From NCBI GenBank assembly GCA_044892525.1, contig CM097885.1:32304001-32368000 (forward strand): DNA of 64,000 nucleotides. Reading direction: 5' to 3'. How positions within the stretch are numbered: position 1 is the stretch's first letter; each line of letters starts with the position of its first letter. The notes beneath the pieces were generated by a model. That model saw only the letters and a list, made by a program, of their open reading frames with translations, did not search any database and had not been told where the DNA came from. The position numbers and the translations under genes are program-made. Of the stretch, positions 1-59,551 are shown in pieces. This DNA comes from Schmidtea polychroa. Taxonomy: Eukaryota.

Positions 1-117
1 CCCCCCCCCGGGGGGGGGGGGGGGGAAGGGGTTTGTTCCCAAATTTTTATTACGCAATTGTTCCCAACTCATTTTTTTGCTTTCAGGGATTTTTGGTCCA
101 AATTTTTTTTTATCACC

Positions 118-1015
118 CTATAGTGAGGGGGTCTCGATGGTCCTAGGATTTTCAATACAAAAAATTTTTTTCAATACAAAAATCCGACTATCAATAAAAA
201 AGCATAGAATTTTCAGACTATAGTGAGGGGGTCTCGATGGTCCTGGGATTTTCAATACAAAAAATTTTTTTCAATACAAAAAGCTGGTCTACACTAAAAA
301 AGCCAAGGAATTTTCAGACTATAGTGAGGGGGTCTCGATGGTCCTGGGATTTTCAATACAAATTAAATTTTTCAATACAAAAATCCGACTATCAATAAAA
401 AAGTCAAGGATTTATCATACTATAGTGAGAGGGTCTCGATGGTCCTAGGATTTTCAATACAAATAAAATTTTTTCAATACAAAAACGATGGTCCTGGGAT
501 TTTCAATACAAAAAATTATTTTCTATACAAAAATCCGACTATCAATAAAAAAGCATGGAATTTTCAGACTATAGTGAGGGGGTCTCGATGGTCCTGGGAT
601 TTTCTATACAAAAATCCGACTATCAATAAAAAAGCATGGTAATTTAAGGTCTCAGGATATTTTCAATACAAAAAGCCGGTCTACACTAAAAAAGCCAAGG
701 ATTTTTCAGACTATAGTGAGGTGAGTCTCCTTGGTTCTGAGAAATAGGTGGTCTACACTAAAAAAAACGTGGTAATTTAAGGTCTCAGGATATTTTCAAT
801 ACAAAAATCCGACTACCACTAAAAAAGCCAAGGATTTTTCAGACTATAGTGAGGTGAGTCTTCAATAAAGAAGCATGGTAATTTAAGGTCTCAGGATATT
901 TTCAATACAAAAATCCGACTATCAATAAAAAAGCATGGATTTTTCGAATTAAATTGAGGTGGGTCTCCTTGGTCCTGAGAATTTCAATAGACAAAGGTGG
1001 TCTACACTAAAAAAC
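118..1015 (+). repeat. Subterminal modular repeat array (gactatagtgagggggtctcgatggtcctgggattttcaatacaaaaa units)
   Basis: About 10 shuffled copies of the same modules; mirrored at ~14680-15360 and present in the 59080-60664 element. Confidence 0.9.
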
Positions 1016-1019
1016 GTGG

Positions 1020-1800
1020 TAAATTTTTTAAAATTACAGTAAATTATGGGTCTAAAAATTGAATTACAGTAAATTATGGACTAAGATTTTTAAATTACAG
1101 TAAATTATGGTCCAAATTTTTCAATTAAAGTAAATTATGGTTCAAATTTTTCAAATAAGGTAATTATGGTCCTAAAAAATTAAATTACAGTAAATTATGG
1201 CTCAAATTTTTAAATTAAAGTAAATAATGGTTCTAAAAAATTAAATTAAAGTAAATTATGGCTCAAATTTTCAAATAAGGTAATAATGGTCCTAAAAAAT
1301 TAAATTAAAGTAAATTATGGTTCTAAAAATTAAATTATAGTAAATTATGGCTCAAATTTTTAAATTACAGTAAATTATGGTCCTAAAAAATTAAATTAAA
1401 GTAAATTATGGCTCAAATTTTTCAATTACAGTAAATAATGGTTCTAAAAATTGAATTAAAGTAAATTATGGTCCAAATTTTTGAATTAAAGTAAATTATG
1501 GTTCTAAAAATTAAATTAAAAGTAAATTATGGTTCTAAATTTTTCAATTACAGTAAATTATGGTCCAAATTTTGAATTACAGTAAATTATGGTTCTAAAA
1601 ATTAAATTAAAGTAAATTATGGTCCAAATTTTAAAATTAAAGTAAAATTAGGTTCTAAAAATTAAATTAAAGTTAATTAAGGTCCAAATTTTTAATTTAA
1701 GTAATCAATGGTAAAAAATTTTAAATAAGTAAATTAAAGTAATAATTTTTAAATTAAGTAATCAATGGTAAAAAATTTTAAATAAGTAAATTAAAGTAAG
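1020..1800 (+). repeat. ~30-bp tandem minisatellite (aaattacagtaaattatggtccaaatttt)
   Basis: More than 20 degenerate tandem units; mirrored at ~14100-14675. Confidence 0.9.
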
Positions 1801-2009
1801 ATTTTAAAATTTATTAACAAAAAGTTGAAGGTGTTTGAGAATTGAAATTTTTTAATGAAAATTTTTATGGAATAATTTTTTAAGTAATTTTTAATGGAAA
1901 TTTTTATGAAATATTTTTCAATGATAATTTTAGATGGAAATTTTTAAGATAATTTTTAATGAAAATTTTTATGAAATATTTTTCAAAGACAAATTTTAAT
2001 AATAATTCA

Positions 2010-3200
2010 ACAACAAACCAACAACTTAGTACCAACAACCAGTAACTTATGAACATGTATTAACAACCAGATACCTACAACTAGTTACTAACAACCAGTT
2101 ACCTGATACCAGATACCTACAACTAGATACCTACAACTAGTTACCTGATACCAACTACTAACAACCACCTACCCATTAACTAGCTACAACCAGCTAACAA
2201 CTAGCTACCACCTAGCAAGTACTAACAACCACCATCAACCCGGTACTAAGCATTATTAACCAACTACCAAGTACTTACAACAAGTTACTAACAACCAGTT
2301 ACCTGATACCAAGTACCTACAACTAGATACCACGTACTAAATAACTCTCAAACAACCAAGTACCTACAACTAATTACCAGATACCAAGTACTATCAACCA
2401 GCTAACAACCTGATACCAACAACTAACAACCAACTACCAAGTACTTACAACTAGTTACTAACAACCAGTTACCTGATACCAAGTACCTACAACTAGATAC
2501 CACGTACTAAATCACTCTCAAACAACCAAGTACCTACAACTAATTACCAGATACCAAGTACTATCAACCAGCTAACAACCTGATACCAACTACTCACAAC
2601 CAGATAACAACTAACAACCAGATACCAAGTACTTACAACTAGTTACTAACAACTAGCTACCAACTACTAAGTACTAACAACCAACATCAACCAGGTACTA
2701 AGCATTATCAACCAAGTACTAACAACTAGATACCTAGTTACTAACAACCCGCTAACAACTAACAACTAGATACCAAGTACCAGTAAATTACGAACATGTA
2801 TTAACAACCAGATACCTACAACTAGTTACTAACAACTAGTTACCTGATAGCAACCAACTAGCTACCAACTACTAAGTACCTACAACCAACATCAACCAGG
2901 TACTAAGCATTAATTACCAACTACTAAGTACCTACAACCAACTAACAACCACCTACCAAGTACTAAGCATTATCAACCAACTACTAAGTACCTACAACCA
3001 ACTAGCTACCACCTACCAAGTACTAACAACCAGTTACCAACTACTAAGCATTAATTACCTACAACTAGTTACTAACAACTAGATACCAAGTACATACAAC
3101 CAGACACTAAGCATTATCAACCAAGTACTAACAACCAAGTAACTTGCCTAGTATTAAGCACTGTCAACTAGATACCAAACACTTACAACCAGATGACCAC
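2010..3200 (+). repeat. C/A-rich, strand-skewed modular repeat (caactagttactaacaacc..., gataccaagtac...)
   Basis: G-poor shuffled short modules, including a ~170-bp internal direct duplication (~2260-2420 and ~2430-2590); mirrored at ~13060-13790. Confidence 0.85.
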
Positions 3201-3506
3201 ATGAAATTATTGGTTAAATATGAAAATAAGGATTATATTTAGTTGTTAAGTAAATTATGGTGTAAAATTAAGAAATAAAGAATAATTAGGTAAATTAAGG
3301 ATAAGTAAATTAAAGTTAAAAATTTTAAATTAAAGAAAACAATGGTTCAAAATTTAAAATTAAGTATCCAATGGTTCAAATTTTAAATTAAAGCTAAATA
3401 AGTAAATTAAAGTAAGATTTTTAAATTTATTATCAAAAGATTGAATAACCACCAACTTTTTTGAGAAATGTAATTTATAATGAAAATTTAAATGGAAATT
3501 TAAATG

Positions 3507-3558
<52 letters not shown>

Positions 3559-6500
3559 TACTAATAATTCAACAGTTACCAACAATCGGTTACTGATTAT
3601 TTTTTAACTAGGTGCTAACAAATACTTACACCATGATACCACGTACTAACTAACTCTCAAACAACCAGATACTTACAACTAACTACTAAATATTCTTTTT
3701 TGTATTTTATGAAATGCTTTTTAAATTAATTTTTTATCTATCTTCAAAAATATATTTAATTACAATCATTAGAAAAACCTTTTCAAATTTAACAAAAATG
3801 TTGATTTTCATCAAAAAACCACAACTCATCACCACTTGGAATTCAAAATAATTTTAATTACAATGAAAGACTAATGAATTCTAATTTACAAAACATTCTT
3901 CTTTTAAATGATAACTTATTATTGCAATGTAAAAATCGCATTCAATAAATACTTATTGTTGATCAGTTTTATTATATATACTCTGAGTTTATCCGACAGG
4001 ATGTTTTGACCCCCTAAGGGTACAGGTCGTAAGGGTACTAGTCGTAGGGGTATTGGTAACACTCAACCCCCATCTACCCATTAACCACCTAACAAGTACC
4101 AACAACCAAGTCTCAAACAACTAAATACTAAACACTAACAACCAACAACAACCAGGTACTAAGCATTATCAACCTACAACTATATAACAACAATCAGTAA
4201 ACAACACTGTACCAACTACCAAATACAAGAAACCAACAACTTAGTACCAACAATCAACTAACAACACATAAAAATAATAGCAATTAAATAAAAAAAATTA
4301 TTCTTCATCGCATACACTATTTTCTTATCAAAATCTAAAAAGTCAACCAACTACTTACAACCAACAACTATGTACTAACAAATTGATCTTTAAAAGCAAA
4401 TACTCATCACTTGAAAAAATTAGATGAAAACTTAATTGAACTCAAGGCACTTTTAAGATATTTGAACTCAAGGCATCAATAACTTGGTAAAAATTGATTA
4501 AATTATTGTAAAAATTTAAATTATTCAAAATATACTAAATTAAAAAAATATAATTAATGGACAAGAAAGAACTTTAAATTCTAGTCATTGATCATTTAAG
4601 TTAATATGAATCAACTAAGATAATAAATTAATAAGAATTTTGAAATAAGATCTAGTAGATAATTGATTTAGATTGAATAAATTAATTGAAATAAAATTAA
4701 TTTTAATTATTATTTTTTTAAAAGTAATACATGTACTCAAATTGATTGACTGATTTCTCAATATATTCAAAAAATCTGTATGAATTCATTACAATTATCA
4801 AATTCAGCAATCTACAATAAAAATAATTATCATTAAATTTCAAAAGAGACTAGAAAACTAATGATAAAATCTATCAAACCAGTAAATTCATTTAAATGAC
4901 AATAATTGGTATATCCAAGTGAATTCTCTAATAAAATCATCTAAAAAGCATCAAATTTCCCTGAAATATCTATATCTTTTAAGATTAGTATCTTATCGAT
5001 AAGTACTTGTTAAAGATCATATATTCACCTCAAACTAACAAGATTCCTTAAAATCCCTTAAATGACTATATTTCAACCCTTAATTCGTATTATTACAAAT
5101 ATCATTTAAAAAGCATCAAATTTCATTGAAATAACTCTATCCTTAAAGATTGATATTTTAATGACAAGTACCCTTAAAAGGTTATATATTTACCTCAGAC
5201 TAATAAGATTGCTTAAAATCCCTTAAATGACTATAATTCTAACTTTAATTCTTATTATCACGAATATTTCCCTATAAAACATGTAAAATCATTAACCCTA
5301 AATAATTTATAAAATCTAATGATAAAACTGGTTATAATTAATTTTTTGTTAATCACTGTACTCGATATTTTAAATAAATATTACTACAATATAACTGACT
5401 AGGTCCCATTGAAAGATTAAATTTATCCATTCAATAAAATATATTTCTTCAAATGATCATTTTTACCAATATTCAACCTATTTAATTACTAATTAAAATC
5501 AAGATTTCTTCCAATAAAGATCAATTTTATTTAGTTGTTGTCGATGTTTTAAGTCCATATTTTTCAACTTTTGTCATTCTCCGCCTAAATAAAGATAAAA
5601 ATAAATTAAAGTTGAAGTCAATCCCAATTATCTATAAAGATTTCATTGTCAAAACCAAGTAAATCGGTCATTAACACTACGTAATAAAACCCTGGATAAT
5701 TAATAGAAAATTTAATAAAACATTGTTCTAAAACATAAATCTAAATTAATATACAATGGATTAATCACAACCTAATAAAACGATATAATTATTATTGATA
5801 CATAACTGACTAATTGACATTTCCCTTAAAACAATGATATTTTACCAACATCACCATTAAAAAAATCATATATTCCCATCTTAACCCATGTCTCATTAAA
5901 TTTAACCGACTATATTCCCATCTTAACCCATCCTTCATTAAATTCAATCGACTATATCTTCCTTACAATGATATATTCCCACCTTATCTGATCTCTCATT
6001 AAATCTAACCGACTACATCCCCTCAAAAGATCATATTTTCCCATCTTAACCCATCCTTCATTAAATTTAACCGATAATATCCCATCTTATCCGATCTCTC
6101 AGCAAATAATTCTACCCTTTTAAACATCTATCCGATTATATCCCTTATTTTCCCTAAAGATTCCGCCCACTTGAGCCCTTTAATATATATCAATCCTCTT
6201 AAAATCCTCAGAGAAATTCAAAAATATGACTTTTAATTAATTGTTATAGAACCAGACAAATAATAAGAGCCCATTAAAAGATCAAAATTCACTAAATTTT
6301 CTACAAATATTTACCATCAAATACTGGAGATGATATATATTGTTTGATCATAATTCTTCAGCTATTCAACCAATCATTTTCAAGCAATAACAGCAAACTA
6401 AATTTCAGTATATTCTACAATAATTATCAAGTAAATTTAAAGTCCTTGATAAAGTTAACTGGTTTCTTAGCTTATGTTTTTTAAAGTTCATCAATGAGTA

Positions 6501-7677
6501 AATTATTGAAAAAATTATTTAGTCAAATATATTACAAAGTTATCATCAAAAATCACTTAATTATTAACCTAATTGTCAATGAAATTAATTTTTATTTAAA
6601 AACTATTCAATAAAATACAACTAATTATGAAGAAATTAATTAAATTTATCAATTAAATTTATCAGTCAACATGAAAGTTTTAGAAAATTGTTCAATATCC
6701 TCATAAAAATTTATCATATCACTTGATTATTGTAAAAACTCTAATTATTAACCTCATTGAAAATAATTTTTATTTAAAAACTATTCAATAAAATACAACT
6801 AATTATCAAGAAATTAATTAAATTTATCTTAGAACTAACTTTAAATATTCATTCAATAAACATGAAATTCACAAGAATGATAAAAATCCACAAAATGATA
6901 GAAATTCACAAAAATAATAGAAATTCACAAAATTGATAAAAATCTGCAAAAATAATAGAAATTTACAAAAATCAAAGAAATTCACAAAATTGATAAAAAT
7001 TCACAAAAAAGATAGAAATTTACTTGAATAAAACCATCAACTCTAAAAATTATCAATACCTTAAACAACAAATTTGCCTAAATAACCATTCAAATAAAAG
7101 TATTAAAAGTACCCTTGCGACATGTTGAATGTGAGTAGTACCCTTGTGAGCAATACCCATAGGGGACAGAATATTTTGTCGGATAAACTCAGAGTATATA
7201 TTAATTAACTCATTCTTCATTGAATCATTAAAATTATCATAAATTTCGATAAAAATTCTAAAGTGGTAAGCAATGAAAAGAGAAATATTCTTTAAACTTT
7301 GATAAAATTAACAATGAAGGTGGTAAGAATCTTCATTAAAATGAGGAAATTACTCGATGATAAATTCAAATGGGTGAAAATAATTGGTAGAATAATTCAT
7401 TAATGGATCATTGAATGGGCATAGATAAGAAGAAGCTTGATAAGAATGGAAGTATATTAATTTATTTAAAATTATTTCATAAAATTCATAAATTTAATAA
7501 AAAAAACAAATATTTGTGAGGAATAATTAATCAAAATTGGTGGAATATAATTGATTAAATATCGAGGGTGGGGAATATAAGTGAATAATTAATGGAAAAT
7601 CGGGAATCGGGGGTAATATAGGGATTAAATAGTAGAGAATAATAGTGAATATAAGTGAGGAGGATATATAATTCAAG

Positions 7678-7755
7678 CTAGTTTATTACATAACAAGCCG
7701 TGACTAGTTTATTACATAACAAGCCGCAACTAATTTATTACATAACAAGCTGTGA
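7678..7755 (+). repeat. Three 26-bp tandem repeats at the inner end of the arm
   Basis: ctagtttattacataacaagccgtga x3 (degenerate); mirrored at ~8775-8852. Confidence 0.9.
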
Positions 7756-7760
7756 ATGGT

Positions 7761-8769
7761 ATTTTACCAACATTTTACTAAATTTTTAAAATATGTAATT
7801 TAATTTTAATTATATTTTAAAATTGTATATATTTTCAATATCATTCTATTGTTTTATTCCAATAGTAAGTTTAAAAAGTATATAATGATTATTAAATTAA
7901 TATCTTGTTAACATTTATTTGAGAATTTAAAAAACTTTACTTAAAATTTGTGAAGTATTTAATTTTGATTGTATTTTATAAGATATATATTCGAGTATTA
8001 GCTTATTTTGATTGAAGTTTCATATTTAATATTATGATGATTGTTTTCTAAATATTTTAGTGTAAAATAGTAAATTTAATAATAAATAGAATACAATATT
8101 AAAAGACCTTATGAAAAAAAGAGTAACTTTTAATATCTAATCAATAAGTTTTAAAAGTCTATAACTGATAATACACTAATTTCTTATTTACATTTACTTA
8201 TAAAATTTATATTTTTAAATTTAGTGTAAAAGTATTTAATTTTTATTGTAATTTATAAAAATCATCTATTTGAATAGTTATCTTATTTTGATTAAAAGGG
8301 TAATATAATTAATAATATGATAATTGTTTTTGAAATATTTAACGTAAAATAATAAATTTATTAATAAATAGCTATTATTACAATATTAAAGGACTTAGTC
8401 ATAATTTTGAAAAAAAAATAACCAAAGTAACTTTTTATTTCTATTACATAATTCCGTCAATAAGTTTAAGTCTATACCCGGTAAAAATTAAATTATTATT
8501 TACATTATTCGAGAATTTGAAAAACTTATAAAATTTATATTTTTAAAATTTAATTTTGATTGTATTTTCTAAGATATATATATTTGAATATTCAACTTAT
8601 TTTGAATGAAAAGGGTAATATATATATATATTATTTTCTTTTATGATAATTGTTTTTGAAATACATAATGTAAATTAAAACATTTTAGTATTAATTAGTT
8701 ATTATTTTAGAATTTATTTTAGTCAAAAATTTAATAAAATAAGACCTATTCCTTATTTCTTATTCAAAA
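7761..8769. repeat. Central spacer of the fold-back, built from ~3 diverged ~290-bp direct repeats
   Basis: taagtt..aaagt.tata..., ttattttgattgaa... and tgat.attgtttt..aaata motifs recur in units starting at ~7866, ~8145 and ~8461. Confidence 0.7.
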
Positions 8770-11700
8770 ACCATTCACAGCTTGTTATGTAATAAATTAG
8801 TTGCGGCTTGTTATGTAATAAACTAGTCACGGCTTGTTATGTAATAAACTAGCTTAAATTATATATCCTCCTCACTTATATTCACTATTATTCTCTACTA
8901 TTTAATCCCTATATTACCCCCGATTCCCGATTTTCCATTAATTATTCACTTATATTCCCCACCCTCGATATTTAATCAATTATATTCCACCAATTTTGAT
9001 TAATTATTCCTCACAAATATTTGTTTTTTTTATTAAATTTATGAATTTTATGAAATAATTTTAAATAAATTAATATACTTCCATTCTTATCAAGCTTCTT
9101 CTTATCTATGCCCATTCAATGATCCATTAATGAATTATTCTACCAATTATTTTCACCCATTTGAATTTATCATCGAGTAATTTCCTCATTTTAATGAAGA
9201 TTCTTACCACCTTCATTGTTAATTTTATCAAAGTTTAAAGAATATTTCTCTTTTCATTGCTTACCACTTTAGAATTTTTATCGAAATTTATGATAATTTT
9301 AATGATTCAATGAAGAATGAGTTAATTAATATATACTCTGAGTTTATCCGACAAAATATTCTGTCCCCTATGGGTATTGCTCACAAGGGTACTACTCACA
9401 TTCAACATGTCGCAAGGGTACTTTTAATACTTTTATTTGAATGGTTATTTAGGCAAATTTGTTGTTTAAGGTATTGATAATTTTTAGAGTTGATGGTTTT
9501 ATTCAAGTAAATTTCTATCTTTTTTGTGAATTTTTATCAATTTTGTGAATTTCTTTGATTTTTGTAAATTTCTATTATTTTTGCAGATTTTTATCAATTT
9601 TGTGAATTTCTATTATTTTTGTGAATTTCTATCATTTTGTGGATTTTTATCATTCTTGTGAATTTCATGTTTATTGAATGAATATTTAAAGTTAGTTCTA
9701 AGATAAATTTAATTAATTTCTTGATAATTAGTTGTATTTTATTGAATAGTTTTTAAATAAAAATTATTTTCAATGAGGTTAATAATTAGAGTTTTTACAA
9801 TAATCAAGTGATATGATAAATTTTTATGAGGATATTGAACAATTTTCTAAAACTTTCATGTTGACTGATAAATTTAATTGATAAATTTAATTAATTTCTT
9901 CATAATTAGTTGTATTTTATTGAATAGTTTTTAAATAAAAATTAATTTCATTGACAATTAGGTTAATAATTAAGTGATTTTTGATGATAACTTTGTAATA
10001 TATTTGACTAAATAATTTTTTCAATAATTTACTCATTGATGAACTTTAAAAAACATAAGCTAAGAAACCAGTTAACTTTATCAAGGACTTTAAATTTACT
10101 TGATAATTATTGTAGAATATACTGAAATTTAGTTTGCTGTTATTGCTTGAAAATGATTGGTTGAATAGCTGAAGAATTATGATCAAACAATATATATCAT
10201 CTCCAGTATTTGATGGTAAATATTTGTAGAAAATTTAGTGAATTTTGATCTTTTAATGGGCTCTTATTATTTGTCTGGTTCTATAACAATTAATTAAAAG
10301 TCATATTTTTGAATTTCTCTGAGGATTTTAAGAGGATTGATATATATTAAAGGGCTCAAGTGGGCGGAATCTTTAGGGAAAATAAGGGATATAATCGGAT
10401 AGATGTTTAAAAGGGTAGAATTATTTGCTGAGAGATCGGATAAGATGGGATATTATCGGTTAAATTTAATGAAGGATGGGTTAAGATGGGAAAATATGAT
10501 CTTTTGAGGGGATGTAGTCGGTTAGATTTAATGAGAGATCAGATAAGGTGGGAATATATCATTGTAAGGAAGATATAGTCGGTTGACTTTAATAAGAGAT
10601 CGGATAAGATGGGAAAATATAATCTTTTAAGGAAGACATAGTCGATTGAATTTATGTTTTTTTAATGTTGATGTTGGTAAAATATCATTGTTTTAAGGGA
10701 AATGTCAATTAGTCAGTTATGTATCAATAATAATTATATCGTTTTATTAGGTTGTGATTAATTCATTGTATATTAATTTAAATTTATGTTTTAGAACAAT
10801 GTTCGATTAAGTAAGGATAATGATCGATTTACTTGGTTTTGACGATGAAAACCTTACAGATAAATGGGATTGATATCAACTTTAAATTATTTTTATCTTT
10901 ATTTAGGTGGACAACGACAAAATATATTTTATTGAATGGATAAATTTAATCTTTTAATGGGACCTAGTCAGTTATATTTATTTTAAATTTCGAGTACAGT
11001 GATTAACAAAAAGTTAATTATAACCGGTTTTATCATTAGATTTTATCAATTATTTAGGGTTAATGACCAAATTATTTTACATGTTTTATAATATTCGTGA
11101 TAATAGGAATTAAAGTCATTTAAAGGGGATTTTAAGCAATCTTATTAGTCTGAGGTAAATATATAACCTTTTAAGGATATTTATCGATAAAATACTAATC
11201 TTTAAAGATAGTTATTTCAGGGAAATTTGATGCTTTTTAGATGATTTTAGTGAAATATTTGTAATAATATGGATTAAGGGTAGAAATATAGTCATTTAAG
11301 GGATTTTAAGGAATCTTATTAGTTTGATGAGAATATATGATCTTTAACAAGTATTTATCATTACAAGACCAATCTTTAAATATTGATATATTTAGGGATT
11401 TTATTAGAGAATTCACTTGGATATACCAATTATTGCCATTTAAATGAATTTACTGGTTTGTTAGATGTTATCATTAGTTATCTAGTCTCTTTTGGAATTT
11501 AATGATAATTATTTTTATTGTAGATTGCTGACTTTGATAATTGTAATGAATTTATACTGATTTTTTGAATATATTGAGAAATCAGTCAATCAATTTGAGT
11601 ACATGTATTACTTTTACAAAAATAATTAAAATTAATTTTATTCAATCTAAATCTAGATCTTATTTCAAAACTTTTATTAATTTATTATCTTAGTTGATTC

Positions 11701-12714
11701 AACTTGAATGATCAGTATTTTTTTTATTTACTGGATGATTAATGATTAGAATTTTTTCCTGTCCATTAATTAAATTTTTATGATATTTATTTTGAATAAT
11801 TTAAATTTTTACAATAATTTAATCAAATTTTACCTAGTTATTGATGCCTTGAGTTCAAATAATTTTCCATCTAATTTTTCAAGTGATGAGTATTTGCTTT
11901 TAAAGATCAATTTGTTAGTACATAGTTGTTGGTTGTAAGTAGTTGGTTGACTTTTTAGATTTTGATAAGAAAATAGTGTATGCGATGAAGAATAATTTTT
12001 TTTATTTAATTGCTATTATTTTTATGTGTTGTTAGTTGATTGTTGGTACTAAGTTGTTGGTTTCTTGTATTTGGTAGTTGGTACAGTGTTGTTTACTGAT
12101 TGTTGTTATATAGTTGTAGGTTGTTAGTACTTGGTATCTAGTACCTGGTTGTTGTTAGTTGTTAGTACTTGGTAGCTAGTTAATGGGTAGATGGGGGTTG
12201 AGTGTTACCAATACCCCTACGACTAGTACCCTTCCGACTAATACCCTTACGACCAGTACCCTTACGACCTGTACCTATTTGTTAGCACCTGTCGGATAAA
12301 CTCAGAGTATATATAATAAAACTGATCAACAATAAGTATTTATTGAATGCGATTTTTACTTTGCAATAATAAGTTATCATTTAAAAGAAGAATGTTTTGT
12401 AAATTAGAATTCATTAGTCTTTCATTGTAATTATTTTGAATTCCAAGTGGTGATGAGTTGTGGTTTTTTGATGAAAATCATCATTTTTGTTAAATTTGAA
12501 AAGGTTTTTCTAATGATTGTAATTAAATATATTTTTGAAGATAGATAAAAAATTAATTTAAAAAGCATTTCATAAAATACAGTGAAGAATATTTAGTAGT
12601 TAGTTGTAAGTATCTGGTTGTTTGAGAGTTAGTTAGTACGTGGTATCATGTTGTAAGTATTTGTTAGCACCTAGTTTAAAAAATAATCAGTAACCGATTG
12701 TTGGTAACTGTTGA

Positions 12715-12769
<55 letters not shown>

Positions 12770-15472
12770 CATTTAAATTTCCATTTAAATTTCCATTATA
12801 AATTACATTTCTCAAAAAAGTTGGTGGTTATTCAATCTTTTGATAATAAATTTAAAAATCTTAGTTTAATTTACTTAGTACATTAATTATTTAAAAATTA
12901 TTACTTTAATTTACTTATTTAATTTAAAATTTGAACCTTAATTTACTTTTTTAAAAATTATTACTTTAATTTACCTAATTATTCTTTATTTCTTAATTTT
13001 ACACCATAATTTACTTAACAACTAATTATAACCCTTATTTTCATATTTAACCAATAATTTCATGTGGTCATCTGCTTGTAAGTGTTTGGTATCTAGTTGA
13101 CAGTGCTTATTACTAGGTAAGTTACTTGGTTGTTAGTACTTGGTATCTAGTACCTGGTTGATGTTGGTTGTATGTACTTGGTATCTAGTTGTTAGTAACT
13201 AGTTGTAGGTAATTAATGCTTAGTAGTTGGTAACTGGTTGTTAGTACTTGGTAGTTGGTAGCTAGTTGGTTGTATGTACTTGGTATCTAGTTGTTAGTAA
13301 CTAGTTGTAGGTACTTAGTAGTTGGTAATTAATGCTTAGTACCTGGTTGATGTTGGTTGTAGGTACTTAGTAGTTGGTAGCTAGTTGGTTGCTATCAGGT
13401 AACTAGTAGTTAGTAACTAGTTGTAGGTATCTGGTTGTTAATACATGTTCGTAATTTACTGGTACTTGGTATCTAGTTGTTAGTTGTTAGCGGGTTGTTA
13501 GTAACTAGGTATCTAGTTGTTAGTACTTGGTTGATAATGCTTAGTACCTGGTTGATGTTGGTTGTTAGTACTTAGTAGTTGGTAGCTAGTTGTTAGTAAC
13601 TAGTTGTAAGTACTTGGTATCTGGTTGTTAGTTGTTATCTGGTTGTAGGTACTTGGTATCAGGTAACTGGTTGTTAGTATCTAGTTGTAAGTACTTGGTA
13701 GTTGGTTGTTAGTTGTAGGTATCTGGTTGTTAATACATGTTCATAAGTTACTGGTTGTTGGTACTAAGTTGTTGGTTTGTTGTTGAATTATTATTAAAAT
13801 TTGTCTTTGAAAAATATTTCATAAAAATTTTCATTAAAAATTATCTTAAAAATTTCCATCTAAAATTATCATTGAAAAATATTTCATAAAAATTTCCATC
13901 TAAAATTATCATTGAAAAATATTTCATAAAAATTTCCATTAAAAATTAATTAAAAAATTATTCCATAAAAATTTCCATTAAAAATTACCATTGAAAAATA
14001 TTTCATTAAAATTTCTATTAAAAATTACTTAAAAATTATTTCATAAAAATTTTCATTAAAAAATTTCAATTCTCAAACACCTTCTATTATTTTGTAATTA
14101 AATTTTAAAATCTTACTTTAATTTACTTATTACATTACTTTAATTTACTTTTTTAAAAATTATTACTTTAATTTACTTATTTAAAATTTTTTACCATTGA
14201 TTACTTAATTTAAAAATTTGGACCATTATTTACTGTAATTTAATTTTTAAGAACTTAAATTTACTTTAATTCAAAAATTTGGACCATTATTTACTTTAAT
14301 TGAAAAATCTGGACCATAATTTACTGTAATTTAATATTTTAGAACCATAATTTACTTTAATTTAATTTTTAGAACCATTATTTACTGTAATTTAATTTTT
14401 TAGGACCATTATTACCTTATTTGAAAATTTGAGCCATAATTTACTTTAATTTAATTTTTTAGAACCATTATTTACTTTAATTTAAAAATTTGAGCCATAA
14501 TTTACTGTAATTTAATTTTTTAGGACCATAATTACCTTATTTGAAAAATTTGAACCATAATTTACTTTAATTGAAAAATTTGGACCATAATTTACTGTAA
14601 TTTAAAAATCTTAGTCCATAATTTACTGTAATTCAATTTTTAGACCCATAATTTACTGTAATTTTAAAAAATTTACCACGTTTTTTAGTGTAGACCACCT
14701 TTGTCTATTGAAATTCTCAGGACCAAGGAGACCCACCTTAATTTAATTCGAAAAATCCATGCTTTTTTATTGATAGTCGGATTTTTGTATTGAAAATATC
14801 CTGAGACCTTAAATTACCATGCTTCTTTATTGAAGACTCACCTCACTATAGTCTGAAAAATCCTTGGCTTTTTTAGTGGTAGTCGGATTTTTGTATTGAA
14901 AATATCCTGAGACCTTAAATTACCACGTTCTTTTTTAGTGTAGACCACCTATTTCTCAGGACCAAGGAGACTCACCTCACTATAGTCTGAAAAATCCTTG
15001 GCTTTTTTAGTGTAGACCGGCTTTTTGTATTGAAAATATCCTGAGACCTTAAATTACCATGCTTTTTTATTGATAGTCGGATTTTTGTATAGAAAATCCC
15101 AGGACCATCGAGACCCCCTCACTATAGTCTGAAAATTCCATGCTTTTTTATTGATAGTCGGATTTTTGTATAGAAAATAATTTTTTGTATTGAAAATCCC
15201 AGGACCATCGTTTTTGTATTGAAAAAATTTTATTTGTATTGAAAATCCTAGGACCATCGAGACCCTCTCACTATAGTCTGATAAATCCTTGACTTTTTTA
15301 TTGATAGTCGGATTTTTGTATTGAAAATCCCAGGACCATCGAGACCCCCTCACTATAGTGTGATAAAAAAAAATTTGGACCAAAAATCCCTGAAAGCAAA
15401 AAAATGAGTTGGGAACAATTGCGTAATAAAAATTTGGGAACAAACCCCTCCCCCCCCCGGGGGGGGGGGGGG
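8770..15472 (-). repeat. Right arm of giant inverted repeat
   Basis: Reverse complement of the left arm; near-identical in the inner ~1.8 kb, visibly diverged with indels at ~10600-11900. Confidence 0.92.
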
Positions 15473-16360
15473 TAATTGTTCCCGTGGGCTACTATCTACC
15501 TACTAATAAGAATAATAAAATACGAAAAAATATAATAATCTATTGAATTTTATTTCATTTTGAAAATATTTTTACAAAAATAAAATGGAATTTAAAATAG
15601 CAAAAGAGATTTAAAACATCCTTGATTAGTTTCCGAAATTTAATTTCATAAACATAAATGACTTAGACCAGACAAGAAATAATTACTTTATAAAATAAAT
15701 ATTGCAGGAAATACTTAAATATATATCTGTAATGAAAAGTGTTTTTATTTTTCTAAGCTATTTTTTGGAAAATAAATGGAACCATTTCATTATTGTGTAA
15801 GAAAATATCAAATAATGTTGAATTTCGAAGCGTATCTCTTTTTTCGGACTACCGGTTTCACAATTTAACATTCCCTATAATCTTTCGACAGCTTAATAAT
15901 GAATTCCCATAACCTTGCTTACGCGTTGAAGTTTTATAAAAAAATTTGGCAATATTATTATCAACATAAAAATATTTAATTTTTTAAATCTCTCAAACTC
16001 GATTTTCCATGCAGGGTTTGGTTTTGTGAAGAATTCCCATATCAAAATCTGTTTTGCACTAGTTTTTAATAATTAAAGCATGGCTGAATATTTTCGATGT
16101 GTTTTCATTGAGCGCTTAACTTATGTATGGTCGAAGACTCTTGGATTTATCGTTGCGCATAATAAGTATCAATTAAATGAATTTAAAATACATTCATAAA
16201 TCTCCTTATTTCGATTGAGGTCGCATCCCGGAGACCAAGTTCCTTGCTATTTGTTAGACGCCGCCCAGATATTTTATGAATGCAAAAATTGTATCCGTGT
16301 TTTTGATTTTTTCGACTTTAGCTATATCTTATTTTTGCGCATTTTGATCATAAACTATAT

Positions 16361-20740: not shown

Positions 20741-21186
20741 CAAAAGTCGGTGAAGATTTGTTGAAATTGTGAAAGTATTTGACTATAATATCGAATAATA
20801 CCGACGTGATCAAAAGTCGGTGAAGATTTGTTGAAATTGTGATAATATTTGAGTGATACCGAGGAATAAAAAGGTCGGTGAAAATTTGTTGAGATTAGTA
20901 AAGTATCAAAAAAAAACAATTTGGAAAAAGATAATAATAATTAAATAAATAAATATTGAAGTGAAACGTTTATTTGAAAGTGGTGAACATTATTCGAGAA
21001 TTATTAAAGTGGTGAATTTATTATTGAAGCAAAGTGGGAAAATTTGTAACGAGTGATTGTTGAAAAGTCAAAATTAAAACGAAAGGTAAATTTTGTAATT
21101 GTAATACTTTAAATTTTAGACGAGTAAAACCTGTGTTAACCAGATCATTTTATAAATTGAGAAGCCAAAAACTAGTAGAGAATATA

Positions 21187-24100
21187 ATGAGTACCCAAAG
21201 ACAAGTTAATAATACAAATAATAATGATGAAACACCGGTGTCCACAGTTTCTGTGGGGAATGCCAGGGAAGGCAATGATTATGCGAGTTGCCAAAAACTA
21301 CCTGTGGATCAGTACGGTGGAGATCCGCTGGAATTTGTCGATTTCATGGCAGATTACTATATGTATGCGACGGCCTATGGATGGAGCCAATCGATAATGG
21401 TGCAAAGATTACCGCTATACCTAAAAGGAGCAGCCAGAGAAGCGTGGCAACAAATTGATAAAAGAATAGTAGCAAATGACTGGACCAAGTTGAAAGACGC
21501 TTTAGCTACGAAATTAATCGGAGGGGATATCAAACGGATAATGCGACAGAAATTCTATAACCGCGTACAAAAGCCAGAGGAATCGGTAAGTGAGTTTGCT
21601 TATCATTTATCAACTCTTGCAGAGAAAGCGTTCGAAGTGAAACCAGAACAGGCCGAGATGGCAAAGCAGGTAAAAGAATTATTGCAGGATCAATTCTTGT
21701 CAGGAGTAAAGAAAGAAATTAAAAAGGCTCTATGCTATGTTGATTTTAATGACTTTGATGAATTGATCAAAAAGGCAATGAAAATTGAGCTAAATTTAAA
21801 AAGCACACAGTCAAAATCAGAATCGTTTGCAGTCATCTCAGGCGCAAGCGAAAGATCAGTAACCCCAATTAGAAACAATCGTTTTCAACAAACAAGTAGT
21901 CCATCACCAAAATTTAGATCCAAATTTGAGTCGAACAAGTCAACAGATATTCAAACAGATGGAAAGGAAGGTCCCATCCAATGTAGTCATTGCCAAAGGA
22001 TTGGACACCATGTTAACCAATGCTGGTTTAAAAATAGAGTACAGAGAAGCCCAATTCCGATTCAGTGTGATAATTGCCAAAGAATGGGACATGACAGCAA
22101 TCAATGCTGGTCCAAAAATAATGTACAACGGAGTCCAAGGCAAATGTGGCCTGATTGGTTAAAAGGAAATGGTGCGAAAAGTTTCACTAAAGCGAACATT
22201 AATGAGCCGAGAACTAATGATAACTTACAATGCTTTAATTGCGGAAGAAAAGGGCATGTGTCACGAAATTGTTTTGCCAGGTCAAGATCAACATCAACTT
22301 CACCATCACCGCAGAGAGATAAAGTAAATCTACAAGGACAAATTCAATGTCATTCATGCAGAAGTTATGGACACATGGCTAGATCATGTCCAAGAAATGT
22401 GGATAAATTCCAAAGGCCCATATTAAAGAAATCGATTAGGTTTCAGAGTGACAAACCGCAGATGGATAATGTAGCTTTTATTCAGCCAGATAATTTTAAT
22501 GAAAGAATTGAAAGCGAAGTGAGAGAAATGGGTCGACGTTTGGATCGATTGATGTCAAAGTTTGAATCAGAAGAGGACTACAATAATCACATGATGTATG
22601 AGTCGCAAGAGGAATTGAATGAAAAAGAGTCGAAAAGGAGAGTTATAAAAGATGATTTAGAAAGTGAAAAAGCAACAATGATAATGACCAGAATCGAAAA
22701 ACTAATTGGAAATAATGAAATAGAGTCGGCTAAAGTGATCAAATCGTTGAGAGAATTAAGTCAAATATCTTTGAGCATGAGAAAGATAAAAAGTGTAATT
22801 AGCTTGTGCGTTAACTACTATAATATGAATCCAAAGTATAAAGAAGAAATTAAAGAATTAATGAAAATATTCGGAAAAGCTTTGAGAGAGAAAACAGGGT
22901 TAGATTCCATCTTTGTGGAAGTAGTAAATGGGATTGATAAAAGTGTATTATGTTGTCGTTGTGAGGCAAATGATTGTGTAAATGATTTAAAGAATAAATT
23001 AAAAGAAAAAAAGGAAGGATGCATGATAGAGTTGAGATTTAATGAGAGATTGTTAGAAAATGACGAATTTTTGGTAGATTGTGGATTTATACCAGGGAGT
23101 ATAAATGAATTAAAAATGGAAAATGTAATTACTAGTGATGAAATAATGAGTAGTAAAATAATAGACAAAAGGAATTCAAGGGAGATATTAGAGGAATTAA
23201 ATGATGCGTTATACATTGGAGATGAAGATGAAATCGATGAGAAGTTACAGATTATTGAGAAATTAGAAATGGAGGACAACGATAAACTAAAAATAGTGAA
23301 TACAATACGACCATATTTACATGTGAAAACCAGATATGCCAAGTTATTAAGAAGTTTATTGCAAAGATTGGGCAAGGAGCTCAGAAAGGCAAGAGTAGAG
23401 TTAAAGCCATTTTTGATAGCATTAGATTATGAGGGATATGGCAAAACGGAATATGTAGACGAGCATTGGTGTGCAAAGGTCCGAAAATTGCGGAAGAGAG
23501 CGGCTGAAACGCTGGGAAAAGATGGAATTATTATAGTAATGTACAAAGGTGAAGAACTTGACGATGATGAATACCTATATGATTGTGGGTGTGTACCACA
23601 AGAGCTGGATGAAAACGGATATTTGATCCGAGATGGACGAGTGGGATATTTAGTGAACCATATAGTCGTAGTAAAAGGAGTGAGTTTAGAAGTAAATATT
23701 GAGTCTAACAAGCCTGACACAGAGGAACAAGATGAAAAAGTTAAGGGAAATAAAGAAATTGATGAAATCGTTAGTGATAATGAGCAAAAAGATCCTGATA
23801 ACAAAGATCAGTCCACGGAACCAGACGTACAAGGAGAGCTACTTGTACCTGAAGGCGAAATAAATGGTGAAATCAAAAATAAGAAAGTTAGAACTTTATA
23901 TGAAATAAAGAAATATTTAGTGAGGCTAGAACAGGACGTCGACGAAACTAAGAAAATGTTGAAACATCTCGTTAAAGCAGTATATCCAATGTTCGACATA
24001 GAAATAGAGGTAGAGGATGAACTGAAAGAAATAGTTAAAGAGATGAAGAATAGGCTTCCTGAAGTGATGCAGAAATTTGGCGAAGAGAATACATTCTGCG

Positions 24101-27100
24101 AGAGATCAGTAATTGAAAATTTGGCAAAAAATGAAATTAATAAGGAAGTTATAATAATAGCTTTAACTTATGTTGTTTTAGAAATTGGAACGCATACGTT
24201 CGCAAGGTCAGACAAGTTAGAAAATTTGATAGACATCGCTGCCCGGCTAGTAAACGAATATTTAATGAGCTGGGTAAACGAAAAAGGTGGTTGGAAAACA
24301 CTGTGTTCATCTCTAACAGAAAAGAAAAATGAGAAGCAAGAAATGAGTCCACCCCAAAGACGAGTAAATGAAAGAGTTAAGCCAGAACTAAGAAAAACTA
24401 TGATATTTCCATGGGCGATGTTTATGGTGATTACGTTTTGTGCAATAATTACACAGACATCATCTTTAGTTGCGTACGATTGTTCCCAAATTGAAATGGG
24501 AAAAGTTTATTCGGTAGTAGATATGTCGGAATGCCCAGGTGCGTATCCGAGCAGTTTAAAAATAGAAAATGACGTAAAATATTATGTGTATCAAGAGTCT
24601 GATCTGCGAAGAACTCAAGTGAGAGAGTGTATTGTCAAACATACAACATTTGTATTCTATTGTGGTAAATGGAGCCATACGTCACTCATAAAAATGCATG
24701 CGATACCTAGGCCAGTCGAGGTGCTTCCAGAAAACTGTCTAGCAGCATTTCAAACAGGAGAATTAAAAATAAGTCCAGAAATTCGTTTAAAGGCAAAATT
24801 GAACCATAGAATACGAGAAACAATAATTGTAAAGGGAGTAATGAAAGCAAATGGCGACTGTGAAGGTGAACCATATAAAATGAACGGTAAAATTATTCAG
24901 CAAACAGTGGTGCTAGAAGAATATCTCACGGAGTTGAGAGAGTTCGAAGGAGCTTTCGATGATGATACGGGAAAATTACAAACTCATCCATTCTGTAATA
25001 TGAAACAAACACATTGTCAAACAGGGGAATCGATTCTTGTTTATAATGTAGAAACAAATAAGTGTAATTTAGCGCACTTAAAAACTATGAACTTTAAAGA
25101 GCTAGTAGGAGAACAGTTTAGAGATAAACCAGATAATTTCAATATGAATTATAGACCAAATAATACCATTAAATCAACCCCAGTATGGACAAAGCAAATG
25201 GGAACAGTTATAATGTCTACGTTACCAGCAGATGGAATGCGATTTATAAAAAAGGAAATCACAAATAAATGTGGTCGAATGGTATATGTAACAAATTATA
25301 AAGGTGTTTACGTGCCTAGAAATGTTGTGGAAGAAGCAAAAATTAAAATTCACAGAGATGACATTAAACTTACTCATTATTTTAATAATAAAATTGATTA
25401 TTTGTTTCATTTTAGTCAAAACATCATGGAAAATGTATATAGAGAAATGATTCTGAACGATTGTAAGTTGAATAAAGAGATTCTCCGAAATCGGATGGCG
25501 ATGGCAATTACGAATCCAAATTTAGTAGCACCTATGCTAATATCAGAAAATGGAGTGTTTGCGAGAATATTTGGAGAAGCATTATACAGTTACAAATGCA
25601 AAGAAGTCACAGTGAAAATTGCCAAATACGAAAAATGTACGAATGAATTACCAGTAAGCTTTGGGGGAAAGGTACGATTTATGGAACCGATAACTAGAAT
25701 CTTGCTTGATGAACAAACTAAACCAAAACTTTTGCAATGCAATCGATTATTAGCCCCTTTATACCGATTAGCTACAGACTCATGGATAGCCTTACCAGAT
25801 TATCGTGGGGTCAAGACTCCAGACAAACTAGAATTAACAAATTTAGAATACCTGATAAATTTCACATCACTAAACAAAATGGCACAAATGGGCTTGTATG
25901 CAAGCGAAGATATCGAAGAAGCTCAAAGGAATTTGTTGTTTCCATCCAAAAAGGAACGGATAATTTCAGAAATGATTGACACAGTATTACCGAATGGAGA
26001 AGGAACAGTAAATTACGAAAATTTGCTAACACCTGATCATTTCAAACGAGCTACATATAAAACGATGGAAAAGATTTGGGGCAAGTTCATGTTTTTGGGA
26101 CAAGCATGTGCAGGTTTAATTGGAATTTACGTGATTATGATAACGGCAAAGGTGGTAGTGTCGCAAATGTTGTCAGTACATCGAATATACGCAATATCGG
26201 GATGGTCATGGAAATTAGTTATTGGTTGTATTCCATTGTTGGCTAGATTCTTTATTACAGATCATCAATTTAAAGAAATGGCAAGAGTAAGGGCACAATT
26301 AAGAAATGGCCGAAAAAGTGAGGAATCGACGTGTCAGTCGGAAGATAAAAACGACGATCATAATGATGATAACAACAACGGGGAATCGGAGTATAAATGC
26401 TTTCGAAAAAGTGTAATAAAGAGTAAAGTAGAGCCAGAGTCCAGGTTCTTGCTTGAACCAATGCCAAAATTAAGCGGGATTGATACTCTTAGTAGATGGT
26501 ATACCCCGACATTTAGACCAACAGCACCAATATATCCAAATGAACAATTAAAAGAAATGAAATCTGTAGATAATATCACAATCGAATTAGAGAAGATTGA
26601 ACCAACGAGTGCTGAAATTGAAAGAAAGAATATGCTTGGTCTACCATGCAGCTATGCACTAATGACAACAGTAGTAGGAGGAAAACAACCTCGAATAAAC
26701 ATACAGTTTAACAAGAGAAAAGTGGAAGCTTTATTAGACTCAGGCTCAAGTCATACTATAGTAGCGGAAAGTTTCTTGACGTATCAGGAGAAAGCCAAAA
26801 TAAAACCAACGAATCACATTATTAAATCAATGTCACATAATGCACTAAATATTGTTGGAAAATTAGAAGTTAAACTGATAATTGGAGAGCAAGAAATAAT
26901 TCATTGGGTATCAGTGATGAGAAAAAGTCCTGTAAAATGTCTAATTGGCATGGATGTCATGGAGCAACTACATGGAATCTCTCTTGATCTGAGAACTGGA
27001 AAACTAATAAAAGGACAAATGGGTGAAGTAGTGCCTGAAGTAGGAGAGGTATTTCTAAACCAAACATTGGAAGTACCACCAAAAAGCGAAGTAATCTACT

Positions 27101-29487: not shown

Positions 29488-31376
29488 AACTTAGTACCTC
29501 ACCATATCATCCACAAACAGATGGTCTAGTTGAAAGATTTAATGGGACACTAATTAATATGATATCATCCTATGTAAATAGGAAACAAAAGGATTGGGAT
29601 TTATTCATTAAACCATGCCTATTTGCATACCGGAATGCAGTAAATGAAAGCACTGGAGAAACACCCTTTTATCTCATGTATCTACGGCGAAGCAATATGC
29701 CAGTCGATCTAGAATTTCAGTCACCTATTTCCCAATATATGGATGTGTCAGATTATAAAATAGCTATGCATGAAAGACTACAGTCAGTATGGATCCAAGC
29801 TGGACTTAACATAAGGCATCATCAAGAAGCGTATAAAGAATGCTATGATAAACGCGCACGGGCGCATGACATTAAAATTGGAGATCTCGTGTATATAAAC
29901 AAACCAGAACCAACAAAAGGCTTGTCAACGAAATTGCAACGACCGTTTAAAGGACCATATCTAGTGTGTGATACGACAGAGACTAACTTAAAATTGCGTC
30001 CACAAAACAATAAAAAGGCTGGGACAATCATCGTTCATGTAAACAGATGCAAGAAGATAATAGAAGATGAATCACGTTATCCATTGAGATCAAAACCAAA
30101 TAAAGATGCAGGGAACCCAGTAATTAAACAAAAGTTTACAAAAAACCCTGCTCCATTGAGTTACATCAATAAAGTTTTATTGATTACAACAGTAATGATT
30201 ATCAATATAATGTCAGTAAATGCAGTGAGAGTATTCCCGTTATATGCAACTAATACAGTTGTATTATTAGACAAAGTTCATATTTATTCAACATGTACTC
30301 AAATAGTTTGGGTTTATTATGCTGGAGGAGCAGAAGAAATAGAGATAGATAATCTAATAAACTATTTCGAACCCCCAATAAAATTGAACAGCACCAAAAA
30401 TATTTATGTGGCTAGACAATTAACAATGAATTATGAATACCCTTGGTTAATTACGCAATTGGATTCGAAAAGTAATAATACAAAAATACAAAATCTTATA
30501 CGTATTAATATTTGGACAAAGAGATTACATAATCGAGTATCAATTGAACCACTGGTAAATGGAATTGACATATATTGGGAACCCCAGGAATCCCAACAAG
30601 TAAAAGCAGTTTTTCAAAATTATGCGATAGATACATTGAATAGCAGAAAACCCTTTATAAAGTATGCAAATTTAAAATTACATCATAACTATAATATTCT
30701 GATTCATTATTATGAAAAATCTTTATATGAAAACGGAACTGAAATTGATAGTCAATGGATCAGAATACACTCTAGTCAACATATGATACGATTAGTTAAT
30801 GAAACAAATCGGGTTACTTTTCATATTTTCAATCAATTAGTGAACGTTACCCGACAAGCGGAGCCCAATCAAAAAGCTATTTTATATTATTATGGAAAAA
30901 TTCAATCGATATTAAATGAAAAAAATAAATCTCAAATATTAACTTTTCGTCAACGTTCACCAATATCAACGTCAAAATTTGTGTTCATTAAAATAAAATA
31001 CTATAGACGTTCTCTATTTTCAAATTTATGGCAATTAACATTAGTGGAAAATAAAATTGTGCAAATTCCATCTATTAACTCGCAGTATGGAAATCGAAAC
31101 AAATCAAATCAGTCCAACCGAACCCCTAGCTCTGTCAACGTAATCATCTTTTCTAGCATCAATGAGTCAATGACTAATAACGAAACCATATCGTCATTAA
31201 AAACTGACAGTGAAATTGTGTGTGTCACATTATTAATAACTACTCTCATTATAACAATCTCTCTTATTATTCTCATTATCATTGTGCTAATTGAATTTCG
31301 AACAATACCCAAACCTTCTACGAATCGATCCGAGATTGCGAGACCTTGGATCGTTTATGAAGAAACATTTGTGTAG
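29431..31376 (+). CDS. Polyprotein part 2 (after 1-bp frameshift): IN catalytic core and C-terminus, then a second signal peptide and a type I TM glycoprotein
   Basis: Frame of ORF 29319-31376. TNFQSELF...SPYHPQTDGLVERFN completes D-35-E; GPY motif; hydrophobic KVLLITTVMIINIMSVNA (30171-30224); ~10 N-x-S/T sequons; TM at 31215-31293. Confidence 0.9.
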
Positions 31377-31805
31377 TAAGACATAAATACTTTGCATGCA
31401 AAATTGATAAAGTAGTAGTAGCAATATAGTACAAATATTTTATGGATATTATTAATATTTTATTTCATTATGGATATGATCAATAATTCATTTTATTTTA
31501 CTTGTGAATCTGCACTTTTCAATGTCAACGGAAAGAATCAATTTGATTGGTTAGCGCTGTGTTAAGGGGGAGAGAAAAACGGGGTTAAGGGAATTTTCGT
31601 AAGGGTATTAAAAGAGGGTAAAATCCATTAAACTCCATTAATTTTGAGAAAAAAAAAATATCAACAATTAACTAAACGGTAATTATTATTATTTATTTAT
31701 ATAACTAGTCGGTGGGACGGTATCCTTTGGGTACCCCATCTCAACCCTAGTGTTAAAATTAAATTAACTTCAAATTTTAATTATATAACTATTGTAGAAA
31801 AAAAA

Positions 31806-36955: not shown

Positions 36956-37626
36956 CGTATTCCGACAATCCGCCAACACGACAATCCGCCAAATGACAAT
37001 CCACCAACAGACAATATGCCAACACGACAATCCGCCAACACTAAAAAATTGGCCAACGCTGACATTTATTAAAAAAAATATTTGTAGGTCATCATATTAA
37101 AATTAATTCATATGTACTTGTACAACAAATTTGCCTAAATAATCATTCAAATAAAAGCATTAAAATCAAATACCAGTACCTTTATGATCAGTATCATTGC
37201 GACATGTTGAATGTGAGTAGATATCTTGGGAGCAATACCCATAGGGGGTCAAAACATCTTGTCGGATAAACTCAGAATATATATATATATATAATAAAAA
37301 GAATTAACTCATTCATTGAATCAGTCAAATTATGACAAATTTTGATAAAAAATCTTGTTTACCTCTCAGCCAGTTAAATTGTTTAAATATTTAATTAAAA
37401 TTTTATATTAAACAATTACTAGTTGATTATTATCTTTCAGCGGAGAATTTATTATTAAAATTTTAAAAATATAATAAATTTAAAATGTATGTATGTTAAA
37501 ACAAAAATTTATCGACTTTTTGGCAGATTGTCGCTTTGGTGGATTGTCACTTTGAACTATTTGGCGGATTGTCGTTTGGCGGATTGTCGTCAGCCTATTA
37601 ATGATTTGGCGGATTGTCGTACAACC
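36956..37626. mobile_element. Non-autonomous MULE/fold-back-like element with inverted subterminal repeat arrays
   Basis: cgacaatccgccaa x5 at left and ttggcggattgtcg x5 at right; flanking direct repeat ATCAAAAAC (36947-36955 and 37627-37635), an 8-9-bp TSD. Confidence 0.8.

Positions 37627-59486: not shown

Positions 59487-59551
<65 letters not shown>

Follow-up and report, generated by a model that had tools for sequence, protein, structure and literature searches.

The 64,000-nucleotide stretch of the Schmidtea polychroa genome analysed here (contig CM097885.1, positions 32,304,001 to 32,368,000; hereafter the window) begins inside a 15,536-bp transposable element that ends like a Polinton (Maverick), carries no genes and consists for most of its length of two inverted arms. 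This palindrome is probably copied by the polymerase and inserted by the integrase of gene-bearing helper Polintons, with its arms kept alike by fold-back copying. Shared ends, target-site duplications (TSDs) and the dispersal of near-identical copies point to mobilization in trans by helper proteins; replication would also occur in trans, outside the chromosome, in a manner resembling that of defective-interfering genomes. A first-pass annotation had proposed a non-autonomous, integrated element with Polinton ends, and this is supported by the shared ends, the 6-bp duplications of the family and the lack of genes.

The left arm extends to position 7764 and the right arm from 8766 to 15504, so the arms of about 7.8 and 6.7 kb around a 1-kb spacer described earlier were recovered. 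The outer left arm (1-2007, forward strand) is a terminal inverted repeat (TIR) of about 2 kb, common to gene-bearing Polintons, with a poly-C/poly-G tract and tandem repeats of ~101, 30 and 13 nt. It is followed by a middle left arm (2008-5910, forward), non-coding, repeat-rich and unmatched in the sampled helpers, and by an inner left arm (5911-7764, forward) of 1,854 nt that ends in three 26-nt repeats and is 99.9% complementary to its mirror, the inner right arm (8766-10619, reverse). The central spacer (7765-8765, no strand assigned) has 1,001 nt, 15% G+C and three degenerate direct repeats of ~280 nt, and is the loop if a single strand folds. The middle right arm (10620-14338, reverse) is homologous to the left arm but is a patchwork of other lineages, and the outer right arm (14339-15504, reverse) is ~99% complementary to the outer left arm besides deletions. 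Tandem repeats make up much of each arm. The description of the element as almost fully palindromic holds at the two extremes of the arms, where the innermost 1,854 nt and the outermost ~1.2 kb are complementary at 99-100%, but the arms are not uniformly alike: their global alignment covers 6,396 nt and shows 165 substitutions (2.6%), while 65 gaps add up to 1,560 nt.

Simple repeats of the AG/AGT type, AGTAGGTAGATAGTAGC, stand at each end. The right end, ...CTACTATCTACCTACT followed by AATAAG, was found at 15504 as described, with the flanking copy of the TSD at 15505-15510 (forward strand). A matching left end had been predicted upstream of the window, and the 32-nt terminus is indeed present at G000:C1:32303969-32304000, adjoining position 1. 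The predicted flank AATAAG is not: the terminus follows AATAAT, in which an (AAT)n run finishes, and five of the six positions of the duplication match. Perfect 6-bp duplications are characteristic of the family, the window copy itself having only this 5/6 match. The 1.6-kb relative noted earlier was located at 59080-60664 (1,585 bp, no strand assigned); its ends are of the same type, it contains terminal-repeat sequence, and its duplication is CACATT.

The absence of genes, also claimed earlier, was borne out by frame lengths compared with shuffled sequence, Pfam, Rfam and ARAGORN, and near-complete self-complementarity is here combined with a lack of coding capacity. The longest stop-free frame in 2008-13786 encodes 84 aa (amino acids), as against 74-119 aa in 30 shuffles, and the sole frame of at least 100 aa (15054-15488) sits in the terminal tandem repeats, with a Pfam match only below threshold. 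An autonomous Polinton is defined by a DNA polymerase B of the protein-primed kind (pPolB) and a retroviral-like integrase (PMC5499653); neither a frame nor homology of this kind was found in the element. When 90 reading frames taken from helper loci were used as tblastn queries, none matched the 11.8-kb interior at the level of a gene, and no counterpart of the Polinton capsid, ATPase and protease module was found there with these frames. Decayed helper genes in the arms were rejected on the same tblastn result, and structured RNA or tRNA genes because Rfam and ARAGORN both returned nothing in the element. A gene in the spacer was also rejected, given its low G+C content, a longest frame of 62 aa, frame-breaking indels among copies and the lack of codon periodicity across 63 distinct spacer matches.

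Gene-bearing partners with identical ends, which the first-pass annotation had anticipated, occur in the same genome, at C1:182.2 Mb and at other loci. At least 91 matches to the pPolB family PF03175 were found. The helper at C1:182.205-182.223 Mb is 17.9 kb long, with the same 32-nt ends, terminal repeats of ~2 kb and an AAATAA duplication. Its frames include pPolB (1,432 aa, matched by PF03175), an rve integrase that occupies two frames, an A32-like ATPase, a TBP-like protein and a RING protein. The copy at C1:31.8 Mb contains a 407-aa frame, found at 182.2 Mb too, whose product gave a confident predicted fold (pLDDT 91.8 with a 112-sequence alignment; 29 without an alignment), and Foldseek matched this model to double-jelly-roll major capsid proteins of iridovirus (E 2e-15), PBCV-1, mavirus and Sputnik. 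By this model, the 407-aa product is a double-jelly-roll capsid protein. Sequence searches of the PDB and PHROGs identified neither pPolB nor the capsid protein, and a Pfam scan missed PF03175 on a frame that the PF03175 family search matched. No protease gene was identified in the helpers, where no search was aimed at one. The integrase is split over two adjacent frames, by an intron or a break, in L072 (3230-4393), L032 and L090; the same three elements carry the TBP-like gene, and the RING gene occurs in L071.

The exact 32-nt end occurs 140 times in the genome (69 forward and 71 reverse) and not once in the reversed control, which excludes chance. A 17-nt end motif covering variants gave 2,024 + 2,025 matches, and an inner-arm 22-mer, of which each arm carries one to three copies, gave 531 + 513, again with none in the reversed controls. 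From these counts the number of Polinton-ended elements in the genome is put at about 2,000, of which some hundreds would belong to the window element's family; this is an estimate and not a census.

The composition of this population was assessed in a position-ordered sample of pairs of at most 21 kb. The first 100 end matches on C1 gave 38 adjacent forward/reverse pairs, 28 of which fell within this length, and 26 were classed; the pair at 4.717 Mb was analysed separately as a hybrid and that at 6.979 Mb is a probable duplicate of the one at 6.703 Mb. Palindromes accounted for 18 of the 26 intervals: 13 gene-less members of the window family (58-94% self-complementary) and five with pPolB in both arms. 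The other eight were three elements with the full gene set, one gene-bearing element without pPolB, three single-arm gene-less elements and one tiny unit. Some palindromes have as their centre a unit of ~300 bp with two element ends (L079 2866-3167, L168 8856-9147, and L219).

Perfect 6-bp duplications flanked 18 of the 26 intervals. They also flanked ten of 11 end pairs in another set, in which the window copy was the exception, and 16 of 17 among the 30 loci closest to the window's centre, the 17 being those with both ends within 20 kb and the other 13 lacking one or both ends inside that range. One palindrome of 16,887 bp (L191-L192), for example, is bounded by TATATA. Near-identical palindromes at different loci have different duplications, and the palindrome therefore moves as a unit.

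Integration with a 6-bp duplication does not in itself call for replication by pPolB. The element could be a large foldback-type cut-and-paste transposon that uses the Polinton integrase alone and was never copied by pPolB, since use of the integrase needs only the ends and the duplication, and non-palindromic relatives of 1.6 and 7.1 kb also have perfect duplications. Such an origin is improbable, as it leaves unexplained the homogenization of the arms, the pPolB palindromes and the hybrids joined in the spacer that are described below, and also a length near that of the helpers: gene-less palindromes had a median length of 16.6 kb in one sample and 16.7 kb in another, close to the 17.1 kb of the three complete elements. 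Relatives of 1.6, 7.1 and 9.9 kb with duplications exist, and pairs above 21 kb lay outside the sample, so that near-helper length is a tendency and not a rule.

The arms of individual copies are as a rule far more alike than arms of different copies. Among 16 close relatives with both ends, arm-arm substitutions amounted to 0.01-0.73% in 13, over 5.5-8.8 kb, and to 3.3-4.3% in three. The window arms differed from the arms of these copies by 3-11%, a figure from chained BLAST that is noisy in repeats; per-kb identities from chained BLAST are inflated in tandem repeats, and global alignments were used in their place. Three non-repetitive arm segments were compared across 37, 36 and 26 of the 37 elements. 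Within an element the median distance was 0.000 for each segment, and between elements it was 0.050, 0.047 and 0.040. A left arm most closely resembled the right arm of the same element in 17, 17 and 14 cases; 12, 10 and 7 cases were ties, and the closest sequence belonged to a different element in 8, 9 and 5. Alleles present in exactly two arms were shared within one element 22, 35 and 56 times, as against 0.3, 0.6 and 1.2 expected for unrelated arms, and between different elements 1, 10 and 3 times. With arms mostly identical within a copy and copies 4-5% apart, arms have been repeatedly re-copied from each other, and the pairing of alleles within elements argues against passive inheritance from one old fold-back.

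Re-copying could have taken place in the chromosome. Polinton proteins would then move the element, while hairpin or cruciform breaks would be repaired with the opposite arm or an ectopic copy as template, and copies converted in this way would serve as masters. Long palindromes are known sites of breakage and conversion, central deletions can mimic new fold centres, and the tracts of 0.4-2 kb seen in the window copy fit ectopic conversion among hundreds of copies. Flanks that are inverted instead of directly duplicated at L011/L012 (C1:39.33 Mb) and L189/L190 (C1:9.12 Mb) also fit, as they point to chromosomal rearrangement, by palindrome-seeded inverted duplication, or else to misassembly. 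This account is nevertheless somewhat unlikely. Arm identity usually extends to the very ends of the element and stops at the direct 6-bp duplication, and terminal variants mostly agree at both ends of a copy. In three near-perfect copies the arm-arm differences are mainly private (14 of 18 at C3:48.37 Mb, eight of nine at C3:47.96 Mb and nine of 13 at C2:166.38 Mb), which is expected if arms start identical and then drift. Sequence data of the present kind do not cleanly separate chromosomal conversion from fold-back copying.

The window copy is itself an exception to arm identity, being by its alleles a recombinant mosaic of several lineages. For 139 of the 165 substitutions between its arms both alleles are known from other copies, and the element is a patchwork of tracts of 0.4-2 kb. 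Positions 3201-5600 are 99.5-100% identical to the copy at C1:244.46 Mb, 4050-5850 has ten matches elsewhere at 99-100%, and for the corresponding right-arm stretch 10750-12300 none of 40 scored candidates exceeds 94% over most of its length.

These differences also bear on whether the palindrome is real. Perfect inverted repeats are a known long-read artefact, no contig assembled from short reads spans the spacer or the element, and the two loci with inverted flanks may themselves be artefacts. The arms of the window copy, with their many substitutions and gaps, mostly of alleles known from other copies, and its two flanks, which are unlike and not mirrored, argue against a read chimera, as do the direct duplications in most family members. 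Contigs from X1 and X2, two sequencing runs, agree without a single difference with the sequence from 15480 on into the right flank, although they include only 25 nt of the element, less than the 31 nt of the bridge rule, and the two runs come from one study that is possibly the source. Runs X1 and X5, from two studies, cover all 30 bins of the stretch 7300-9300, with no listed piece spanning it. A fold-back chimera or assembly artefact is thus most improbable.

Polymerase genes occur in palindromic form as well. Among five inverted pPolB pairs chosen from the PF03175 matches, four have a palindromic structure, ends of a sister type and perfect duplications. The fifth, L075-L077 (C1:235.38 Mb), is a 13-kb palindrome with arms 99.7% alike, and the pPolB that both arms carry belongs to a more distant Polinton family, which shows that the palindromic form is not confined to one family. 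Palindromes with pPolB in both arms (L175-L176, L187-L190, L195-L196, L211-L212, L078-L088 and L231-L232) are 7-16 kb long, have their own end variant and arms 96.6-100% alike, and most have perfect 6-bp duplications; four were counted in the inverted-pair set, five in the position-ordered sample and one further. In divergent palindromic copies the ratio of nonsynonymous to synonymous substitution rates (dN/dS) of pPolB is 0.12-0.22 over 337 codons. Since pPolB tracts have been exchanged between palindromes and complete elements, this ratio cannot be assigned to the palindromes, and purifying selection within the palindromic class was not concluded.

Two hybrids, each with a perfect duplication, consist of a gene-less arm joined to a helper half inside the spacer: L031-L032 (C1:4.717 Mb) and L149-L150 (C3:42.45 Mb). 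The junctions lie at the equivalents of window positions 8175 and 8262, and the helper half carries capsid and integrase or pPolB. Three further elements with intact ends and perfect duplications have new centres: one of 9.9 kb at C1:174.58 Mb, centred near window position 5,440 and flanked by CCTTAT; one at C1:230.86 Mb with a spacer of ~180 nt and a GATATC duplication; and an asymmetric one at C1:89.31 Mb with TGCATG. Judged from these structures, fold-back is recurrent in the family.

The first-pass annotation had gone further and proposed a copy-back derivative of a Polinton. Fold-backs with new centres in the family agree with this idea, but direct copy-back does not hold, since the sampled helpers and the window element share only positions 1-2007 and their mirror, and the window element is therefore not a one-step copy-back of any sampled helper. 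More generally, it is very improbable that a single copy-back step from one end of an autonomous Polinton produced the element: no sampled element that has all the genes contains the interior beyond ~2 kb, the family is diverse and old, with arms of different copies 3-11% apart, and the window copy is a mosaic. The pPolB palindromes, 92-96% identical to the helper at C1:182.2 Mb over 3.7-4.6 kb, do resemble fold-backs of the helper's polymerase end, and a helper with a long non-coding arm may exist beyond the sample.

Polintons encode a protein-primed polymerase and an integrase (PMC8097293, PMC6431247). In the preferred reading, fold-back copying with helper proteins, the helper's polymerase would copy the linear element from a terminal origin by strand displacement, and the displaced or stalled single strand would snap back into a stem of 7-8 kb with a 1-kb loop. 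The repetitive ends of Polintons are expected to serve protein-primed initiation, as in adenoviruses, whose ends are regenerated through panhandles. A strand that stopped in the second arm would be completed on its own first arm, giving identical arms, whereas a switch onto another molecule would give mosaic arms, as in the window copy, or hybrids with helpers. Template switching in the unpaired loop would account for the hybrids whose junction lies in the spacer, and switching elsewhere for palindromes with a new centre. The helper's integrase would insert the copied element.

Several points weigh against fold-back copying. Extrachromosomal DNA, the replication intermediate and helper activity are all deduced and not observed, and every sequence pattern could have arisen after insertion, by arm-to-arm or ectopic gene conversion or by central deletion. 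Fold-back copying does not account for the origin of the 11.8-kb interior, which matches no sampled helper, arm differences have no clear outside-in polarity along the arms, and the two loci with inverted flanks fit poorly. In the window copy the middle of the arms is not homogenized and the TSD is imperfect, and in the near-perfect copies at C1:244.46 and C1:236.95 Mb the arms differ mainly by shared alleles.

Two repeats in the arms are of separate interest. Window positions 2031-3200 and their mirror contain many degenerate copies of the terminal 17-mer, all pointing outward: 24 copies at up to five mismatches, with none pointing inward, against a shuffle mean of 1.7 (maximum 6 in 100 shuffles), a count inflated by the region being itself a tandem repeat. 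These copies are possibly a reiterated origin-like sequence. A dispersed repeat of ~100 nt in the arms (7103-7200 and 3970-4022) recurs outside the element at 37122-37289, an indication that some of the interior was captured from host repeats. Elsewhere in the window, a 2,807-aa frame (21064-29487, forward) belongs to a long terminal repeat (LTR) retroelement with zinc knuckle, protease, reverse transcriptase, RNase H and integrase. A fusion glycoprotein domain of the Monjiviricetes type (PF24664, E 1e-86) is encoded in the same frame, after the zinc knuckle and ahead of the protease. Two more long frames follow at 29319-31376 and 31683-33275.

A broader interpretation can be offered tentatively. 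The Polinton population of this genome may be a satellite system dominated by snap-back genomes, in which gene-less palindromes padded with repeats to a packageable helper length, self-replicating polymerase-only palindromes and a minority of complete helpers all recombine while co-replicating extrachromosomally. If so, arm identity would be a fossil record of the strand-displacement replication of Polintons, and also a clock of insertion age, like the paired LTRs of retroelements. Re-copied arms, new centres, loop-joined hybrids and polymerase-only palindromes would lead to testable predictions on a snapped-back single-strand intermediate. Polinton replication has been deduced from genes, the particles being unseen, and surveys have demanded pPolB and integrase together (PMC8097293); such surveys would miss palindromic forms, here 18 of 26 sampled intervals. 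Hundreds of long palindromes are also a likely source of host-genome rearrangement and assembly error.

Among known systems, autonomous Polintons share with the window element AGT-type repetitive ends, a 6-bp duplication and a size of ~17 kb (PMC8097293, PMC3014272). The window element differs from them in having no pPolB, integrase, ATPase or capsid gene, and in inverted repeats of 6.7-7.8 kb that make up most of its length. Polinton TIRs are shorter: those of Anolis measure 584 bp (PMC3014272), C. elegans has 744 bp (10.1101/2024.01.15.575659) and butterflies have ~2 kb (10.1101/2025.02.07.637071).

Non-autonomous or palindromic Polinton derivatives also occur in fish. Kapitonov and Jurka reportedly mentioned long-armed non-autonomous Polintons of zebrafish in 2006. 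A 10-kb palindrome that is part of Polinton-1 lies in the salmon gh1 promoter (PMC2584663), and a zebrafish family, Polinton-1N1_DR, appears by name only (PMC9341505). As described in the available parts of these sources, the fish derivatives come without a family-level analysis, arm homogenization, a class with pPolB in both arms, or hybrids. A full-text search, whose coverage excluded most subscription journals and Repbase, found no analysis of palindromic Polinton families.

Snap-back or copy-back defective viral genomes are likewise near-full-length palindromes with one terminus type, non-coding and helper-dependent (PMC13506859). The window element differs in being DNA, integrated and inherited, in having an interior that does not come from a sampled helper, and in that interference would be a matter of deduction. 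Descent by one copy-back from a parent is not seen, as the outer ~2 kb alone matches the sampled helpers; the element would work like a snap-back defective genome, yet shows no direct descent from a sampled parent. With foldback transposons and miniature inverted-repeat transposable elements (MITEs) it shares non-autonomy, long inverted arms built of tandem repeats and a target-site duplication. What sets the window family apart from these is its Polinton ends and helper, its length of 10-19 kb and arms that are re-copied within the element.

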